Origin: a virus | Lineage: Duplodnaviria > Heunggongvirae > Uroviricota > Caudoviricetes | IMG/VR virus record: IMGVR_UViG_2923307698_000005 | DNA: 16,073 nt | Direction: 5' to 3' (one strand) | Notes under the pieces: generated by a model | What the model saw: the letters and a program-made list of their open reading frames with translations, nothing else | What the model was told of the DNA's origin: nothing | The model's database searches: none | Shown here: positions 9,122 to 16,073 of the stretch, piece after piece | Layout of the letters: the number at the start of each line of letters is the position of its first letter | Position numbering within the stretch: the first letter of the stretch is position 1 | Made by a program: the position numbers and the translations under genes

Positions 9122-9394
9122 TTATCTGTCCTGGTAATTTCGCCATATTTCATCACCAGCACCATCCATACCCATTTCGGCATAAGTGCGATCGACCGCC
9201 TTTTTCAGGTCTCCGTAATTATCCGGCGGCTCCGGTGGCCTCTGTGCCTTCCTGGAACATTCCAGCCGTCGCATCGTGATGTGATGCCGTTCCTTGTCTG
9301 TCTCCACCAGTTGCATGACTTCACCCCATCGCGCCGACGCTCTCCGGTAAAAGCCTTTCGCCTCCAGTTCTTCCGCTATGCGGTCATGTACCAT
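9122..9394 (-). CDS. PerC-family transcriptional regulator-like protein (90 aa from the ATG at 9394)
   Basis: Translation MVHDRIAEELEAKGFYRRASARWGEVM...TDKER...RR..CSR matches my recollection of the PerC/Pch signature. The track start at 9403 is a GTG; the ATG at 9394 is preferred. Confidence 0.55.
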   Translation of the reverse strand: MVHDRIAEELEAKGFYRRASARWGEVMQLVETDKERHHITMRRLECSRKAQRPPEPPDNYGDLKKAVDRTYAEMGMDGAGDEIWRNYQDR

Positions 9395-9406
9395 CGTCCC
9401 CACCCC

Positions 9407-9826: not shown

Positions 9827-10132
9827 TCAGTGAAGCGATCCGGCGTTGTTCTTTTTCATCTCTTCCATCATTTTTTCAGTGAGCATTACGCACTGAAAAC
9901 CCATGTTTTTGATGTCTACGGGCTTCATGCCTTTATCAGTGGATATCACAGGCAGAATATCCTGATACACATCGCGGTCAGGGTAACTAAGCACACAAAG
10001 CGCCCATGATGCCACGGGTGAGGATCCTTCGTCTGTTTCAACCCACCAGCCTGGTGTAGCTGCGCTTATTTGCTGAATCGTGATCCGTCCGTTGTGCTTG
10101 TAAAGTTTTTCACCAAATTTTGGTTCGCTCAT
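9827..10132 (-). CDS. Hypothetical protein (101 aa)
   Basis: ATG with GGAG upstream; ATGA overlap with the upstream gene's stop. No family recognised. Confidence 0.5.
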   Translation of the reverse strand: MSEPKFGEKLYKHNGRITIQQISAATPGWWVETDEGSSPVASWALCVLSYPDRDVYQDILPVISTDKGMKPVDIKNMGFQCVMLTEKMMEEMKKNNAGSLH

Positions 10133-10380
10133 GATTCCAACTCTCCGGTTTTAACGTTGATGGTTGTTACCTGTTCCGCTTCGGCAATCTCCCGTTCTGT
10201 CAGCGTGGCAAAGTTTGCCGCCGCCGTGGTCATGAATGCGCTTATCAGGTCGGGATGTTCCTTCGCGTATCCTTCCCGCGTGTGGCGGTCTATCGTTCTG
10301 ATTGCCACCTTTAAGGTGTGCTCAGTCATGTCTAACGCTTTATATTTTGGCTCTGTTCTGTCTCTGCGTTTTTGGGTCAT
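10129..10380 (-). CDS. Hypothetical protein (83 aa from the ATG at 10380)
   Basis: The track ORF extends to a GTG at 10410 that lies inside the iteron array; the ATG at 10380 is preferred. No family recognised. Confidence 0.45.
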   Translation of the reverse strand: MTQKRRDRTEPKYKALDMTEHTLKVAIRTIDRHTREGYAKEHPDLISAFMTTAAANFATLTEREIAEAEQVTTINVKTGELES

Positions 10381-10384
10381 TTCT

Positions 10385-10585
10385 CGCAACCTCTCACTTT
10401 TTCGCCTCACTTTTTCAAGCGTCTCACTTCGTCGCAGTTGGGATTTTTGGTTTTTCTATGTGTGTGTTTCATAAGTATTTTTTTACCCCTCACTTTTGAG
10501 GATGTATACAGGTCGAAAAGTGAGGGGGAGCGGGCTAATTTTGGCCCTCTTTCTATCCCCCTCGCTTTTGCTCCTCACTTTTATA
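10385..10585. repeat. Iteron-type replication origin: seven copies of CTCACTTTT (one inverted, one CTCGCTTTT variant) flanking an AT-rich spacer
   Basis: Copies at 10393-10401, 10406-10415, 10423-10430, 10489-10497, 10517-10525 (inverted), 10561-10569 (variant) and 10574-10582. The AT-rich core is 10441-10485. Lies immediately 3' of the replication ATPase gene. Confidence 0.6.
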
Positions 10586-11981
10586 GCGGCGCTACATCAT
10601 CCCCATCGATACGAATAACCCCATCTTTTTCCAGCTTGTACAGCCAGCGCCGGAAGTTTTTCATTTCATACCCCAGCTTTTTCATGTCATCACGTAACAT
10701 CTGGATCGTGCACTTGTCGCCGTTCTGTGTGCGTGAACGGATGCACCCCCATAGCGCGGTATGGTTTTCCGTCTTGTTCCCTGCCTCCTCGATGCGCTCC
10801 AGTTCAACAGGAGGGCGCGGATCATCCACCACCACCAGCGACGTGATTAATTCACCGTCAGCGTCGGTAAAAAGCTCCACCACGCGTAAGTCATATGCGG
10901 CTTCTTTGAGTTCCTCCGCGTCCTTCATTTTGGTGCATGAGATAACCAGCGCTTCGCTTCCTGCGTCCTCCCTGCGTATCCGGTATTCAGCATCCAGCGA
11001 AGCACGAAATGCACTGGAACCGCGCGCGCCTTTCGTCTCATCCTTGCCGGAATGGTGAACCACCAGCACCGTGGCCCCTGTGCGTCGTTTCAGTTCGTCA
11101 CAACCACGGATAAACGCCCCCATATCACGGGAATCATTTTCATCATTCCCACCAAAGCAACGCGCCAGCGTATCCAGAATAATCATGCGTACAGGTTTAC
11201 CCGTTTCCCGCTCCACCTGACGGGCAGCGATAACCATTTCATCAACATCAAGCGGGGCAGCCGGAAAGATGGGGCGGTTTACCAGATACAGATTTTTCAC
11301 CTGCTCATCGTGCACAACCTCCCAGGCTTTTACACGACGCGGAACACCTATACCGCCTTCACCAACCACATAGAGAACCGCACCATGTGCAACCCTGCGG
11401 CCTCCCCACTGGCGACCAGTGGCAACATGGCACGCCCACGATCCGGCAAGGAATGATTTATAGGACCCGCTAGCCCCGTATATGCTGCATAGCGATACCG
11501 CCGGAATAATCCCCTTAACCACGTAATCCAGTTGCGTGTCGTATCCGGTAGATCCAACGCTCATCGGTAGCGTGGTTTTTCGCTGGTGGTTTTTTTCTTC
11601 CGCCGGCTCTTTCCCGCGCACCCGTTCCAGGTATTCGCGCCAGTTCTCCCGCATATGGCTGTGCATCCCTTCGGGGTAATAATTCGCATCAGTTACACCC
11701 GCCGCCGCCAGCTTGTGCGCAATGGCATTAATATTTGATGGCCTGATGTGGCCTGCCTTGTACAGCCGGACACAATAGCGCCCCTCGTCGATGATTCTCA
11801 GGTCTGCCAGTTCATCCAGTTGATCATCAGCCAGCACAACGGGAGGCACATTATCGCCAGCCAGTCGCCCGTCCTGTTCCTGCCACTGTTTCGCATGTGC
11901 CCAGGCATCACTACCCGCAAAAATAATGACTTCGGTCATCTTGTCGTAAGGCTGTTTTTTTAAGTTCGGTGCGCTTTTCAT
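10581..11981 (-). CDS. Replication protein: RecA-fold (RepA/DnaB-like) ATPase, probable helicase or primase-helicase of the satellite (466 aa)
   Basis: Walker A GASGSYKS and Walker B-like MIILDT in a RecA-like core. Sits between the accessory ORFs and the iteron origin, as the pri-rep gene does in PICI and P4-like elements. Confidence 0.75.
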   Translation of the reverse strand: MKSAPNLKKQPYDKMTEVIIFAGSDAWAHAKQWQEQDGRLAGDNVPPVVLADDQLDELADLRIIDEGRYCVRLYKAGHIRPSNINAIAHKLAAAGVTDANYYPEGMHSHMRENWREYLERVRGKEPAEEKNHQRKTTLPMSVGSTGYDTQLDYVVKGIIPAVSLCSIYGASGSYKSFLAGSWACHVATGRQWGGRRVAHGAVLYVVGEGGIGVPRRVKAWEVVHDEQVKNLYLVNRPIFPAAPLDVDEMVIAARQVERETGKPVRMIILDTLARCFGGNDENDSRDMGAFIRGCDELKRRTGATVLVVHHSGKDETKGARGSSAFRASLDAEYRIRREDAGSEALVISCTKMKDAEELKEAAYDLRVVELFTDADGELITSLVVVDDPRPPVELERIEEAGNKTENHTALWGCIRSRTQNGDKCTIQMLRDDMKKLGYEMKNFRRWLYKLEKDGVIRIDGDDVAPL

Positions 11982-12277
11982 TTCTTGCCCCTGAATCCGT
12001 TAACCATGGTTTTCAGCTTCTGGATGTTTGCCCGTGCCCTGGCGTTGCTGGTGGGCACGTTATGCGGCGCGGTCTGTACCAGAGAAAAATCACGCCGGAA
12101 CTGATAAACAGGCATCACGCAATCATATTCGTAACCTTCACGGCGGTAGGTTACGCGCCGTTCTTCCACGCCCTTAATCATTACCGTGCCGCCGTACTGG
12201 TCGCGGTAAATATCACCGCGCGTAAATTTAGGGTGAGTGTTGCCACTGGCAGTTAAGCCAGAATATTTAAGTTTCAT
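11978..12277 (-). CDS. Hypothetical protein (99 aa)
   Basis: ATG with GGAGA upstream; its stop overlaps the replication gene start (ATGA). No family recognised. Confidence 0.5.
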   Translation of the reverse strand: MKLKYSGLTASGNTHPKFTRGDIYRDQYGGTVMIKGVEERRVTYRREGYEYDCVMPVYQFRRDFSLVQTAPHNVPTSNARARANIQKLKTMVNGFRGKK

Positions 12278-12282
12278 TATTT

Positions 12283-12516
12283 TTATTCTCCGGTGTGCTG
12301 TTCTTTATATCTGTCGTGCAATAGATCTATTTCTTGCAGTTCCATTATTACAGGCTCAAGAAGCGTTATTAATGCCGTGACAATTCTTGATTTTTGTTTG
12401 TCGCGTTCATTGTCGCCAAGTGTTTCAAGACATATGCGCAATATTTCGTACATACCTTCAGCGTAAGCAAGGGCACTAAATGCGCGGTCTATTGTTTGGT
12501 GGTAAATATCACGCAT
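12283..12516 (-). CDS. Hypothetical protein (77 aa)
   Basis: ATG with GAGGA upstream; coupled to neighbours. No family recognised. Confidence 0.5.
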   Translation of the reverse strand: MRDIYHQTIDRAFSALAYAEGMYEILRICLETLGDNERDKQKSRIVTALITLLEPVIMELQEIDLLHDRYKEQHTGE

Positions 12517-12973
12517 GGCTTACATCCTCAGGAAATTTTCTTCTATAACGCGCCTCTGCCACATATTCCGCATAATCGGCGGCGATATTCAGTACATCAA
12601 GCCCCGTTGATTTATATTCTCTCGTGGAAAGTAAGAAAAAAGCCGCTCTAATAAGTTCTGGCATTGACGAAAGCGCATCAGCCGCATCATCAGGAACGCC
12701 GGAAAATTCCTGTTTCAGGGAATTAAAACGATCATCACGCATAACCCCCCCATTTTCACAATCAGCAATCAGGATAGCTTTGGCCTCATTCAGCGCCGTA
12801 TCAGCACTAAATTGCATGACAGCCAGTGAGTGAGGAACGAAAGCACCGGCATATTCTGTTTCGCTGGTGGCGTGCTTATGTTCCCTGTCCGCGATAACAG
12901 AAATATCAATCAGCGCGTGCATCAGCGTTTTGATGGCTTCGGCGGCTGCGTCCGGTGTGGTTTTATTGTGCAT
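12509..12973 (-). CDS. Hypothetical protein (154 aa)
   Basis: ATG with AGGGGA upstream; overlaps the downstream gene start by 8 nt. No family recognised. Confidence 0.5.
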   Translation of the reverse strand: MHNKTTPDAAAEAIKTLMHALIDISVIADREHKHATSETEYAGAFVPHSLAVMQFSADTALNEAKAILIADCENGGVMRDDRFNSLKQEFSGVPDDAADALSSMPELIRAAFFLLSTREYKSTGLDVLNIAADYAEYVAEARYRRKFPEDVSHA

Positions 12974-13175
12974 AAAGCATCCCCTGAATATTCGTGTTAA
13001 TCATTCCGGCACGTTTTGTGATTTCCTGTAATGATTCCCTTGTGGCGACAATTGCTTCATCTGGTAAGTGGTAATTACACACCACGCGACCTTTATCCAC
13101 ATTGACCAGTAGCTGCCCTGTGAATTTCTCACGAAACTGAATGCGGTTAAGGTCAGTAAGTGACAGATTAATCAT
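12963..13175 (-). CDS. Hypothetical protein (70 aa from the ATG at 13175)
   Basis: AGGAGG six nt upstream of the ATG at 13175; the start overlaps the upstream stop (ATGATTAA). The track's longer ORF to 13217 has no ribosome-binding site. Confidence 0.45.
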   Translation of the reverse strand: MINLSLTDLNRIQFREKFTGQLLVNVDKGRVVCNYHLPDEAIVATRESLQEITKRAGMINTNIQGMLYAQ

Positions 13176-13365
13176 GGCGCACCTCCTGACGAATACGGGC
13201 GGCAAATACAGCAACACAACCGGACGGGCAACGGTTACGCGCTTCGCGTTCCGTCCAGGCGGTTACGTGGATGATTTGAGATTCTCCGGCACTCAGTGCC
13301 AGAAAACGCCACACAAAGGCCGTTTGTGTGTGTACAAGGTGTGGTATATGATTTACGGCAACCAT
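13168..13365 (-). CDS. Hypothetical protein (65 aa from the ATG at 13365), first gene of the minus-strand early operon
   Basis: AGGAG five nt upstream of the ATG at 13365. The track's extension to 13467 would run through operator palindromes and a hairpin. Confidence 0.4.
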   Translation of the reverse strand: MVAVNHIPHLVHTQTAFVWRFLALSAGESQIIHVTAWTEREARNRCPSGCVAVFAARIRQEVRHD

Positions 13366-13445
13366 AACGGCTCCTAGTTTACGTTGTTGGTTAGAAGCCC
13401 CGTTACTGCTCCTACAGTGCGGGGCTTTGCTTTTTGTGTTGATTG

Positions 13446-13491
13446 TGTGTAATGTGTCATTACACATAAATACATTACATGAGGTGTAATT
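13446..13491. promoter_or_regulatory. Paired operator-like inverted repeats in the divergent control region: TGTGTAATG-TGT-CATTACACA (13446-13466) and CATTACA-N5-GTGTAAT (13473-13491)
   Basis: Read directly. Four copies of the TGTAATG/CATTACA half-site between the minus-strand early operon and the plus-strand Arc-like gene, overlapping the Arc-like gene's ribosome-binding site. Confidence 0.45.
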
Positions 13492-13494
13492 AAC

Positions 13495-13674
13495 GTGTCA
13501 ATACACAAAAACGAAAGGCGTGGTAATCCTCCGTTCCAGTTCCGTTTAGATCCTGACTTACGGGAAAAGATGGAAAAGGCACAACAACAGGACGGCGATG
13601 ATTCTCTTGCTGCCTGGATAAAGCGAATAATCCGCAAAGAATTACAGCAACGCGGCATAGAACCCAAAGGATAA
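13495..13674 (+). CDS. Arc-family ribbon-helix-helix DNA-binding protein (59 aa, GTG start)
   Basis: Not in the ORF track (under 60 aa). GTG at 13495 with GAGG ten nt upstream. Translation VSIHKNERRGNPPFQFRLDPDLREKMEKAQQQDGDDSLAAWIKRIIRKELQQRGIEPKG matches the Arc-type pattern: a PPxFxLRL beta-strand followed by two helices. Confidence 0.6.
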   Translation: MSIHKNERRGNPPFQFRLDPDLREKMEKAQQQDGDDSLAAWIKRIIRKELQQRGIEPKG

Positions 13675-13731
13675 AAACTATCAGCGCCGTGGTGTGAGGA
13701 ACTACGGCGCATTTCTTTACAGGAGTAGACA

Positions 13732-13917
13732 ATGAACAACGAAGAATTACGGGAAATCGCATTATCCATACTTGAAAGACAGGTAGAAAAAAAATTAAGA
13801 GAAATGGATGAAATGCCTGACCATGAACAGGAAGCAAGGCCAAAAAGATTTGCCCTTGAGGATTTTCTTAAAAATTGCCCAAGAAAGATGAGATCGTGGC
13901 GTTGTTGTCCGCCCTGA
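13732..13917 (+). CDS. Hypothetical small protein (61 aa), cotranscribed with the Arc-like gene
   Basis: ATG with AGGAG six nt upstream; charged, helical-looking translation; followed by an intrinsic terminator. Confidence 0.5.
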   Translation: MNNEELREIALSILERQVEKKLREMDEMPDHEQEARPKRFALEDFLKNCPRKMRSWRCCPP

Positions 13918-13994
13918 TGACAGATTTGCCAACCAGCCCAAAATGTGGCATCGTTGTCGATGCATAGTGTAATCAACATGTATATCATATTTTT

Positions 13995-14021
13995 GCGACC
14001 ATCATAGGTCGCATTTTTTTT
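13995..14021 (+). terminator. Rho-independent terminator of the plus-strand Arc-like operon
   Basis: Stem GCGACC/GGTCGC with loop ATCATA, followed by ATTTTTTTT. Confidence 0.6.
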
Positions 14022-14074
14022 GCCTGTAATCCGGCAATTGTGGCGCTTCTTCACACAGTTGATATAATTCCAAT

Positions 14075-14145
14075 GCTCATATTTATTTTTTGTGCAGCAG
14101 GTTAATCGTTCACAAAGGCGCTCAGGTAACTGGGCGCTTTTTGTT
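14075..14145 (+). ncRNA. Candidate small RNA, about 70 nt, with its own promoter and terminator
   Basis: Extended -10 promoter TGaTATAAT at 14060-14068, predicted start near 14075, and a strong intrinsic terminator at 14118-14145 (stem GCGCTCAG/CTGGGCGC with one G-U pair, loop GTAA, then TTTTTGTT). No plausible ORF inside. Confidence 0.3.
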
Positions 14146-14291
14146 ATGCCTGAAAAACCCCAATTTTGTTGTTTTTCAGTTTCACCAGGGCGAACGAATC
14201 CCCGCCCACGTTCTGGCGTATATTCAATCTTCATGGTTATAGCTCTGTGTTCAGATGATTGATGTGTGGCGGCTGTGTGCCGCCAGCGTGA

Positions 14292-14480
14292 TTAATGAAC
14301 TGCCTTGCAGCTATCCTTCCAGGCCAGAACCTCGGATAAAGACCAGCCAACGGAACGACCGCCAAGTTTACGACGTGATGGGAATTGTCCGGCCTTTTCC
14401 AGGCGGTAGCGACACGTACGGCTAAGGCCGGTTAGTTTTTTGCATTCTTTTTCACGTATAAACCGATCAGTGCTTAACAC
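14292..14480 (-). CDS. alpA: AlpA-family transcriptional regulator / excisionase-like protein (62 aa, GTG start)
   Basis: Translation LTGLSRTCRYRLEKAGQFPSRRKLGGRSVGWSLSEVLAW matches the AlpA/Xis-type helix-turn-helix pattern. The ORF has no internal ATG; the GTG at 14480 is preceded by AGGGGG. Lies immediately downstream of the integrase gene. Confidence 0.8.
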   Translation of the reverse strand: MLSTDRFIREKECKKLTGLSRTCRYRLEKAGQFPSRRKLGGRSVGWSLSEVLAWKDSCKAVH

Positions 14481-14750
14481 TATTGCCCCCTTTCGTTTCT
14501 TAAAGAGTCATCAGGTGTCTTATTGTGTCGTATTGTTCCCGCTAGAGTGATGAATGGCAAATACTGAGGATGTATGATTTACAGAAAATGAAACAGTAAG
14601 AATAAAATCTTTTAAATTCATGTTAATACAAAGGCATAAAATATTGTTCCATGCCTTTTTTCTCGCTCTTTAAAGAGTGATTCGCTAGTGTATAAAAACC
14701 AGTAACACATTAAAAATCAGCCACTTATAAATCCGTACGCTTTTTCGCCT

Positions 14751-14800
14751 CTTGTTCGTAGTTGTTCCACATTGTTGCTCATTGTTGCACGTTGTATCTG
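14751..14800 (-). repeat. Site C: four to five 10-bp-phased (C/G)AACAA repeats on the minus strand (gtgCAACAAt gagCAACAAt gtgGAACAAc tacGAACAAg)
   Basis: Read directly. The minus-strand string GTGGAACAACtACGAACAA matches site B (GTGGAACAACcACGAACAA) at 18 of 19 positions. Lies 44-93 bp downstream of the integrase stop. Confidence 0.4.
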
Positions 14801-14843
14801 TTCGCATATCCAGTATGCGCATACTGAAAAAACACGAAAAAAA

Positions 14844-16073
14844 TTATTTTCTTCTGGCTACTGGTAGTGCGGTTACGTTTTCATGTGTTCCCGCCAGTAT
14901 CCCTAACCGCTCCATCCACATATCCAGCGCATTGCGTTTAGCATCCAGATAACGGGAATGATTATAAACTCGCTGCATTCCTGGCATCTGGTGGCCTGTA
15001 AGCTGCTCCACGACGTGAGGATCCACGCCTAAATCGTTCAGCATCGTTGTAAAGGTGCGCCGGATGTCATGTAGTGACCAGTGAGGGTGATTTAGCCTCC
15101 TGTGCGCTAATCTGCCGTACTGCGACACGCTTGTTTCCTGTTTCACTTCCCCCAGCAATAAGCCCGTGTGCCTGTTCTGCTCCACCAGCTGCGTGACGAA
15201 CGGCAGTATTGCTTCCGGTATGGGCCGGAATATGGCTACCTTCGTTTTGCTGTGCTCCTTCGGAACAGTCCAGAGCATTTCGGTAAAATCCCACTCGCCG
15301 ATCTCCGATAACCTAAGTTCGACCGTCCGGCATCCGAACACAATCAGGAGGCGGATTAGCGCGATGTAGTAGGGGGAGAATATTTTTTTGTCCAGTGCCT
15401 GCAATAATTCGCCAAGTTCTTTGTTGCTTAAGACACGCTCGCTTATATCCGGTTTTTTCCCAACGTCCGCCACACTCATATCATCAAGAACGTTGCTGAT
15501 TGCATAGCGCCGCTTCCGGCAGAACTTAAGCGCCTGCTTGCATGTCTGTAGCAGGAACCCGGCGGAAACAGGGGCTTGCTTTGCCACCCGATCAAAACAG
15601 GCCAGCCAGTGCCGTAGCTCGCATTTATCCAGCGGCATAGGGCCAATGTGCTGTATTACGTGATTATTTAGCCGCTTTTTCAGTGGGTCATAATCCACAC
15701 GGTTTTCCTTTGCGTACGACTCAAGCCAGTAGGTGAGCGCATCACCAACCGTTACCGGCTTTAACGCTTCCTGTACGGTGTAATTAAGCTCATGACGTGG
15801 ATTTTTCCCCTCTGCCAGCCATGCGCGACACTGGGCGGCTTTTTCCCTGGCTGATTTCAGGCTCAGATCAGGATAATTTCCCAGCTTAATGCGTTCCGGT
15901 GGTGCCCCCCTTCCCGTTCCGGCCCTGTAAGTGAAATACCAGGTTAAAAGGCCACTGGTTGAATGCCTGACGCTCAGGTTTCCACCGTCATTAAGAAAGG
16001 CTGTTTTTTGGGCGGGTGTGCCGTTGATTTTCCTCAGCTGTGTATCGCTCAGTTTGTTAAGTGCTCTGCTCAT
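14844..16073 (-). CDS. Tyrosine site-specific integrase, P4-like (409 aa)
   Basis: Catalytic-domain motifs near the C-terminus (HDIRRTF, GHQMPGMQRVYNHSRY) and an N-terminal DNA-binding region. The ATG is the reverse complement of the last three bases of the window. Confidence 0.93.
   Translation of the reverse strand: MSRALNKLSDTQLRKINGTPAQKTAFLNDGGNLSVRHSTSGLLTWYFTYRAGTGRGAPPERIKLGNYPDLSLKSAREKAAQCRAWLAEGKNPRHELNYTVQEALKPVTVGDALTYWLESYAKENRVDYDPLKKRLNNHVIQHIGPMPLDKCELRHWLACFDRVAKQAPVSAGFLLQTCKQALKFCRKRRYAISNVLDDMSVADVGKKPDISERVLSNKELGELLQALDKKIFSPYYIALIRLLIVFGCRTVELRLSEIGEWDFTEMLWTVPKEHSKTKVAIFRPIPEAILPFVTQLVEQNRHTGLLLGEVKQETSVSQYGRLAHRRLNHPHWSLHDIRRTFTTMLNDLGVDPHVVEQLTGHQMPGMQRVYNHSRYLDAKRNALDMWMERLGILAGTHENVTALPVARRK

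Follow-up and report, generated by a model that had tools for sequence, protein, structure and literature searches.

The five-gene block

The stretch of DNA considered here, IMG/VR record IMGVR_UViG_2923307698_000005 (16,073 nucleotides; henceforth the window), begins with phoQ (positions 1-1461) and continues with a chromosomal island that adjoins this gene and runs for about 14.6 kb, from phoQ to the window's end. This report concerns five short open reading frames (ORF1 to ORF5) on the minus strand of the island, situated between its control region and its replication gene. An earlier note, made from the sequence alone, had taken them to be real, co-expressed genes of unknown function, lying in a slot where satellites commonly hold helper-interference or anti-phage functions. 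The block and the gene that follows it are made up as follows.

13168 to 13365, minus strand: ORF1, 65 amino acids (aa), Icd-like (Icd/Kil family), the operon's first gene
12963 to 13175, minus strand: ORF2, 70 aa, variable cassette gene, family E
12509 to 12973, minus strand: ORF3 as a whole, 154 aa, in-frame fusion of two genes of about 77 aa
12743 to 12973, minus strand: N-terminal half of ORF3, residues 1-77, family BN, phrog_5146
12745 to 12751, minus strand: poly-G tract of seven residues (G7), which fuses the halves of ORF3 (from the junction alignment)
12509 to 12742, minus strand: C-terminal half of ORF3, residues 78-154, with its own ATG at 12742, family BC, phrog_24341
12283 to 12516, minus strand: ORF4, 77 aa, family C, directly upstream of rgdR
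11978 to 12277, minus strand: ORF5, 99 aa, RgdR ortholog (DUF4222)
10581 to 11981, minus strand: replication gene, 466 aa, RepA-like AAA_25 helicase (PF13481, 148.5 bits)

The coordinates of all five ORFs were confirmed, each beginning with ATG and running without an internal stop. The same five coding sequences are called by the Prokaryotic Genome Annotation Pipeline (PGAP) in E. coli O157:H7 strain PV15-279, whose block is 98.8% identical to that of the window. Part of the block is matched in 1462 of 5426 complete E. coli genomes, and every one of the five ORFs has a match among the PHROG families. The ratio of nonsynonymous to synonymous substitution rates (dN/dS) against diverged alleles lies between 0.2 and 0.55 for all five, indicating purifying selection; for ORF4 it is about 1.3 against the two closest alleles, a figure with very few substitutions behind it. 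Because the ORFs are packed head to tail and are under purifying selection, they are real genes, a claim of the earlier note on which coordinates, gene calls, PHROG families and substitution ratios all agree.

The overlapping stop and start codons that had been ascribed to the whole block are found between ORF1 and ORF2 (8 nt), ORF2 and ORF3 (11 nt) and ORF3 and ORF4 (8 nt), and again between the stop of ORF5 and the start of the replication gene (4 nt, ATGA), but not between ORF4 and ORF5, which are separated by a gap of 5 nt. Ribosome-binding sites, likewise ascribed to all, are strong in front of ORF1 (AGGAG) and ORF2 (AGGAGGT), each with a 5-nt spacer, and amount to 4-nt cores in front of ORF4 (GAGG) and ORF5 (GGAG), while ORF3 is preceded only by a G-rich run (GGGGA), as is the replication gene (AGGGG). 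No conserved terminator was found between ORF2 and the replication gene. The block does lie between control region and replication gene, an arrangement suited to co-expression.

ORF5 and ORF1 belong to known families

No motif had been recognized in any of the five proteins. This is wrong for two of them, ORF5 and ORF1, both of which match curated families, so that the description "of unknown function" still holds for ORF2, ORF3 and ORF4 but not for ORF5, an ortholog of RgdR, or for ORF1, a member of the Icd/Kil family. By sequence, none of the five has a relative of solved structure.

Residues 16-68 of ORF5 match Pfam PF13973 (DUF4222) with 85.7 bits (cut-off 27), and 80 of its 99 residues (81%) are identical to those of RgdR, the product of ECs1581 in E. 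coli O157 Sakai (Flockhart et al. 2012, PMC3378721). By this comparison ORF5 is the RgdR ortholog of the island. The two proteins share their length of 99 aa, DUF4222, the RGD sequence at residues 20-22, K35, a basic C-terminus and the position of their genes immediately upstream of the replication gene of the island. The 19 substitutions that set ORF5 apart from ECs1581 fall mostly in the N- and C-terminal tails (e.g., A10 for D); within the core (residues 20-68) the sole difference is H45R, and R20-G21-D22 and K35 are intact. The RGD motif and K35 are the residues important for the activity of RgdR, which activates LEE1 (in the enterocyte effacement locus, LEE) and type III secretion, represses motility, binds DNA non-specifically and contributes to ruminant colonization (PMC3378721). 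These phenotypes are known for ECs1581 and for C1493 of strain CFT073, which is active at 83% identity (PMC3378721). The ORF5 allele may likewise activate LEE1 and type III secretion and repress motility. RgdR is said to be encoded by all analyzed phage-inducible chromosomal islands (PICIs) of E. coli (PMC6092414). No other member of the block is as conserved as this regulator, whose part in EHEC virulence is published.

An alignment of the RgdR family shows G21-D22 and the core of the barrel described below to be invariant, with R, H, P, N or I at position 20. RgdR is a basic protein, and its AlphaFold model (mean pLDDT, the predicted local confidence, 68; 77-86 in the core) consists of a small five-stranded beta-barrel followed by a basic C-terminal helix. 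Its matches in BFVD are confined to uncharacterized small phage proteins (DUF1653, DUF4222), and a scan of genome contigs with RgdR yielded two loci only, in Shigella and E. albertii.

ORF1 matches NCBIfam NF033153 (Icd-like) with 64.8 bits (cut-off 25; E = 5e-18). It is 36.5% identical to the Icd protein of phage P1 over 52 aa, in an alignment that takes in residues 8-56 of P1 Icd and hence spans residues 12-51, the core that binds FtsZ and blocks cell division (PMC11897509). Common to the two proteins are the motifs F[IV]WRF and TExEAR, parts of a longer pattern across the core, F-[IV]-W-R-F...A-x-T-E-x-E-A-R...P-x-G...F-x-A-R. ORF1 is closer still to Sakai ECs1577 (61 of 65 residues identical). 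Going by these similarities, the most likely action of ORF1 is to bind FtsZ and to halt cell division upon induction of the island. Among phage genomes ORF1 found a single match, a 16.5-kb record labeled "induced prophage".

ORF1 is also placed much as Icd is placed in the immI operon of P1 (c4-icd-ant), as a small first ORF translationally coupled, here through its overlap with ORF2, to the next gene. In P1 the icd/ant1 overlap is ATGA, and icd is annotated as required for expression of ant. The two operons differ in that the genes downstream of ORF1 do not encode an antirepressor and that the C4 antisense RNA found upstream in P1 was not detected here. A terminator-like hairpin within ORF1 (13310-13330) was considered as an attenuator and rejected as a conserved signal; it is conserved only among near-identical alleles and is absent from diverged Icd-like genes, from P1 icd and from P4 kil.

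A fixed frame around a variable middle

The surroundings of related blocks were compared in two sets: nine annotated E. coli loci, from which the small genes were clustered into families, and a survey of IMG/VR that provided 58 loci with enough upstream sequence. In the nine loci and in all 58 of the survey the frame is the same, with an Icd-like gene first and, last, an ORF4-family gene directly before rgdR. Between them the contents vary: the ORF2 family, both ORF3 halves, families F and G, or a further Icd-like protein. The overlap between rgdR and the replication gene is always 4 nt in the surveyed loci, whatever the type of replication protein (RepA-like, primase/DUF5906 or DUF927).

This constancy extends into the replication gene. 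Between the RepA, primase, DUF927 and DUF5906 types, the N-terminal 103-163 aa of the replication proteins show 41-82% identity, which defines a shared domain of about 125-160 aa (in the window, residues 1 to about 125, encoded at 11600-11981 on the minus strand). Since the types share this domain, the conserved unit is ORF4 family - RgdR - Rep N-terminal domain, and since they diverge after it, modules are swapped inside the replication gene rather than at its start. The fixed positions of ORF1, ORF4 and ORF5 resemble those of core genes, not of the genes of a hotspot. ORF2 and, less so, the halves of ORF3 behave as variable cassettes, which the other three do not.

The island

The genes upstream of the block include the following.

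14292 to 14480: AlpA (PF05930, 61.8 bits)
14844 to 16073: integrase

Together with the replication gene these make up the set int, alpA and replication gene of E. coli PICIs. The window further holds genes for SSB, PerC and head formation and packaging (capsid, protease, portal, connector, head-completion, HNH, TerS and TerL); neither the ORF list nor a Pfam scan of the window contained tail genes. Because this content fits the published description of capsid-forming PICIs (cf-PICIs; prototype EcCIEDL933, 10.1101/2022.09.08.507074), the island is assigned from its genes to the cf-PICIs of the EcCIEDL933 type. EcCIEDL933 is induced in dependence on a helper phage and AlpA and is transferred in small capsids of its own fitted with helper tails (10.1101/2022.09.08.507074). 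AlpA activates the genes downstream of alpA, which is needed for the induction of both EcCICFT073 and EcCIEDL933 (PMC6092414; 10.1101/2022.09.08.507074).

The element is a mosaic. The window as a whole, at more than about 95-96% identity, occurs in no complete E. coli genome of the collection. The island to which the block is 98.8% identical is a shorter one, which occupies the same site in PV15-279 and in numerous further genomes of O157:H7, and the upstream control region (13366-13748) is only 72% identical to the island of PV15-279. The breakpoint thus falls at about 13366, the start of ORF1.

Two other groups of genes may be mentioned. A gene for a regulator of the PerC family (PchE-like; 9122-9403, minus strand) lies downstream of that for SSB; it may be a further LEE regulator of the island. 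Between the replication gene and the SSB gene are two small overlapping ORFs on the minus strand (9827-10132 and 10129-10410; 101 and 93 aa).

The middle genes and the poly-G tract

ORF2, ORF3 and ORF4 have no relatives in Pfam, NCBIfam, PADLOC or the PDB and match only PHROGs of unknown function. Their homologs are labeled "hypothetical" or "prophage protein", the named ones coming nearly all from E. coli. ORF2 matches phrog_340 only, gave no match by tblastn against phage genomes and belongs to a family found in 17 of the 58 loci, at two different positions. ORF4 matches phrog_2196 and has 516 homologs, all hypothetical and, where named, all from E. coli. That the middle genes form an array of paralogs was considered and rejected: hhalign gave less than 3% probability for any relationship among families BN, BC, C, E, F and G.

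ORF3 is, to judge from its relatives, one allelic state of two adjacent genes of about 77 aa. In most relatives the N-terminal half is a separate gene of about 74-80 aa and the C-terminal half a separate gene of 73-77 aa (as in loci L002, L004, L008 and L009), and these separate genes overlap in ATGCGTGA. The C-terminal half is 98.7-100% identical to the stand-alone 77-aa genes of L004 and L008. What decides between the states is the length of the poly-G tract, which also serves as the G-rich ribosome-binding site of the internal ATG (12742) of the C-terminal half. Counted over the window and the related loci, its lengths are distributed as follows.

G7: 15 loci, fused
G8: 19 loci, separate genes (overlapping)
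G9: 13 loci, upstream gene continues in the third frame
G10: 2 loci, fused
G11: 1 locus, separate genes (overlapping)

Part of this variation may be sequencing error; complete genomes contain G7, G8 and G11. The tract may be a contingency sequence prone to slippage. An exhaustive HMMER search with ORF3 turned up no more than 50 cluster representatives (E <1e-3), and many of these are frameshift fragments. The AlphaFold model of ORF3, all-helical, is too uncertain (pLDDT 52.9) for a fold search.

A protein of 78 aa (P0131) is a chimera, its first 51 residues or so matching the C-terminal half of ORF3 and its last 27 or so matching ORF4. The alignment points to a deletion that joined two neighboring genes in frame.

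The control region

Upstream of ORF1 two features can be recognized.

13472 to 13501, minus strand: predicted sigma-70 promoter (TTGACA, 18 nt, TAATGT), read from the sequence
13366 to 13466, minus strand: leader (5' untranslated region), with a palindrome, then a hairpin, then the AGGAG ribosome-binding site

The palindrome is a perfect one of 9 bp (TGTGTAATG-aca-CATTACACA, 13446-13466) and is a likely operator. The sequence TGTAATG occurs five times in the window, where about two occurrences are expected, and three of the five lie within 13448-13479. Of these three half-sites, two fall within the palindrome, one overlaps the -10 hexamer of the promoter, and together they cover the -10 and the early transcribed region. 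The hairpin is GC-rich (about 13396-13428), and the RNA of 13340-13470 folds with -34.2 kcal/mol (z = -3.3 against shuffled sequences).

Divergent from the five-gene operon, on the plus strand, is an ORF for a ribbon-helix-helix (RHH) protein of 59 aa (13495-13674), whose GTG start abuts the -35 hexamer of the operon. Its matches are weak (to YlcI/YnfO with 20 bits, the cut-off being 30, and to an Arc-like repressor PHROG); in several relatives it carries a PGAP annotation. The RHH protein could repress the five-gene operon. To our knowledge, no master repressor has been described for PICIs of Gram-negative bacteria.

The plus strand also carries a terminator-like hairpin followed by a run of T (13396-13436; GAAGCCCCG...CGGGGCTTTGCTTTTTG), within the leader and immediately beyond the antisense of ORF1's start. 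The hairpin might terminate an antisense transcript or shield the promoter of the RHH gene; a search upstream of the hairpin showed no promoter on the plus strand.

A minus-strand ORF of 286 aa (13374-14234) overlaps the RHH gene. It was considered as an "Eta-like" N-terminus and rejected, and it is most likely a shadow of the RHH gene: its third-codon-position bias is limited to the part that overlaps that gene, and periodicity is missing from 13918-14234. PGAP annotates part of the corresponding region as an "Icd-like" pseudogene (O157:H7 PV15-279 and E. coli strain 5132), and in O157:H7 FRIK804 and Sakai (ECs1576) it appears as a hypothetical protein of 247 aa.

Comparison with Sakai Sp7 and P4

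At phoQ-roxA, O157 Sakai has an island of the capsid-forming kind, which is annotated as prophage Sp7. From the matching site, size and gene content we infer that Sp7 is equivalent to O-island 51/CP-933C/EcCIEDL933. The window shares with it the insertion site; the genes for ORF1, the ORF4 family and RgdR; and an order of int, alpA, a divergent small regulator region, an Icd-like gene, small ORFs, an ORF4-family gene, rgdR and the replication gene, after which come SSB, PerC/PchE and the head and packaging genes. The order in Sakai is ECs1577 (Icd-like) - ECs1578 - ECs1579 - ECs1580 (ORF4 family) - ECs1581 (RgdR) - ECs1582. Here the differences begin: ECs1578 and ECs1579 (families G and F) take the place of ORF2 and ORF3, ECs1580 is just 25% identical to ORF4, and the replication protein of Sakai is of the 710-aa DUF927 type, not a RepA-like helicase.

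A more distant likeness is to the left operon of P4 (eta/kil - epsilon - orf151 - cnr - alpha), which also has a gene of the AlpA/Vis type upstream (45% identity) and a string of small ORFs before a primase/helicase gene. The first ORF of that operon contains a Phage_ASH and an Icd-like domain (73.9 bits), and a start at Met74 would give a product of 65 aa. According to Forti et al. (1999), P4 Kil reportedly is 65 aa long, and translation of kil is said to prevent Rho-dependent termination. In some related PICIs an Ash-family remnant lies upstream of the Icd-like gene, as in P4 Eta. In other respects the two operons part: the CI RNA of P4 was not found here, the replication proteins differ, and BLASTP gave no significant similarity in the window to P4 epsilon or Cnr (DUF5375). 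Residues 19-68 of RgdR align weakly with residues 6-53 of P4 orf151 (hhalign probability 16%, E = 0.0016), which Pfam does not place in DUF4222.

The first ORF of P4 (L005; 8168-8584, minus strand), with its Phage_ASH and Icd-like domains, retains the annotation "cI gene product / transcriptional repressor". The label "transcriptional repressor" of PHROGs 1743 and 6196, which ORF1 matches, is probably inherited from this outdated annotation.

Discussion

It is nearly certain that the block belongs to the early operon of a PICI and includes Icd-like and RgdR genes. With fair confidence one may go further and regard the five ORFs as the genes nearest the promoter in the early (replication) operon of a cf-PICI beside phoQ. 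Transcription would start at the sigma-70-like promoter (13501-13472), induced by helper and AlpA, and would pass through ORF1 to ORF5 into the replication helicase gene, while stop and start codons that overlap or adjoin would chain translation from gene to gene. P1 icd-ant and P4 kil suggest by analogy that the genes downstream may also depend for their expression on translation of ORF1. In the island the primary part of RgdR would probably be that of an accessory to early transcription or replication, and ORF4 may play an accessory role in one or the other; the effects of RgdR on virulence would be by-products of its expression at a low level. ORF2 and the halves of ORF3 would be exchangeable cassettes for small helical proteins.

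Several observations weigh against this account. The promoter was read by eye, and a consensus scan did not list it. No match to a C4/CI-type antisense RNA was found at the Rfam gathering score in the window, nor to a C4-type RNA up to E = 10 in 13100-14900; with no such RNA upstream, the leader-ORF control of P1 and P4 is not reproduced. ORF1 is just 36% identical to P1 Icd, and its binding of FtsZ is assumed from this likeness. The roles given here to ORF1 through ORF4 are putative. The fold matches of the RgdR model in the PDB are generic SH3/Tudor-like barrels (Z <=6.5) that pinpoint no partner; several of them bind RNA polymerase, at scores generic for the fold. The strict linkage of rgdR to the replication gene could reflect a unit of recombination that reaches into the Rep N-terminal domain instead of a partnership. 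Finally, the phenotype of an rgdR deletion was published for cells in which the island was not induced (PMC3378721), so some rgdR expression must be independent of the induced operon. A promoter-like site lies inside ORF4 (12344-12372, minus strand; TTAATA, 17 nt, AATAAT, with a TG extension), 67-95 nt upstream of the rgdR start, and might explain expression in uninduced cells.

More speculatively, and in our estimation rather doubtfully, the invariant trio of Icd-like leader ORF, ORF4-family protein and RgdR may be a module dedicated to the control of satellite replication. In such a module, gating of the operon would fall to translation of the Icd-like ORF, and the target of ORF4 and the SH3/Tudor-like RgdR may be RNA polymerase or the N-terminal domain common to the replication proteins. 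The effects of RgdR on virulence may then be spill-over, and the tract of G7 to G11 could be a slippage switch that sets the middle cassette to fused, coupled or uncoupled expression.

What RgdR does to its host invites a different explanation, that the block holds host-directed regulators of the "moron" type and that RgdR, perhaps with its neighbors, mainly reprograms virulence and motility. RgdR does activate LEE1 and type III secretion, repress motility and aid ruminant colonization, and uninduced cells secrete less when only rgdR has been deleted (PMC3378721); the PerC/PchE-type LEE regulator at 9122-9403 fits as well. However, strains without the LEE (uropathogenic, meningitis-associated and commensal ones) also have RgdR homologs (PMC3378721), R20 of the RGD motif is not conserved while the barrel core is invariant, and rgdR is always translationally fused to the replication gene in a helper-induced operon, which would be unusual for a moron. 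We consider this explanation unlikely.

A little less likely again is the function that the earlier note suggested for the slot, by which the block, or at least ORF2 and the halves of ORF3, would be a helper-interference or anti-phage cassette that binds proteins of helper or competitor phages. The comings and goings of ORF2, at two positions and replaced elsewhere by families F and G or extra Icd-like copies, are what one might expect of such a cassette. The block DNA has no match in bona fide phage genomes, the dN/dS of ORF4 against its closest alleles (on few substitutions) exceeds one, and classical E. coli PICIs interfere with their helpers through genes that in 2018 were not fully identified (PMC6092414). 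Against this, PADLOC-DB contains no family that matches the five proteins or their neighbors at E up to 0.1, and proteins of 60-154 aa without an enzymatic domain are unlike known defense systems. The positions of ORF1, ORF4 and ORF5 do not vary. EcCIEDL933 reduces neither helper titers nor plaques (10.1101/2022.09.08.507074), and P4-like elements have their defense hotspot outside the left operon, between psu and int (PMC9122126). The anti-phage suggestion has no positive support and could hold for the variable middle genes only. The five did not, on the other hand, all turn out to be core proteins with known housekeeping roles, the outcome that the earlier note had set against its own suggestion.

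That one or more of the small ORFs are mere open frames in a leader region is hardly to be entertained: ORF3 and the replication gene do lack a canonical Shine-Dalgarno sequence, the poly-G length shifts the frame of ORF3 and the ORF3 model is of low confidence, but dN/dS against diverged alleles is below 0.6 in every ORF, the homologs are conserved, constant in length and number in the hundreds, every ORF has a PHROG family and a PGAP call, and both halves of ORF3 are known as intact stand-alone genes.

Much of this picture of the early operon of a cf-PICI was already known. Publications already cover the element family, the gene order and RgdR, and there is a curated Icd-like family; minor new points are the map of a fixed frame with a variable middle, the fusion by the poly-G tract and the connection with P4 kil. 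Two annotations should be corrected: ORF3 is a fusion that depends on the poly-G tract, and the "Icd-like" pseudogene that PGAP places upstream of ORF1 is most likely a shadow of the RHH gene. The gene map (Icd-like gene ... ORF4 family - RgdR - Rep N-terminal domain, enclosing a variable cassette) can guide the study of how replication starts in Gram-negative PICIs, and it raises the possibility that the virulence phenotype of RgdR is secondary to a role in the satellite cycle.

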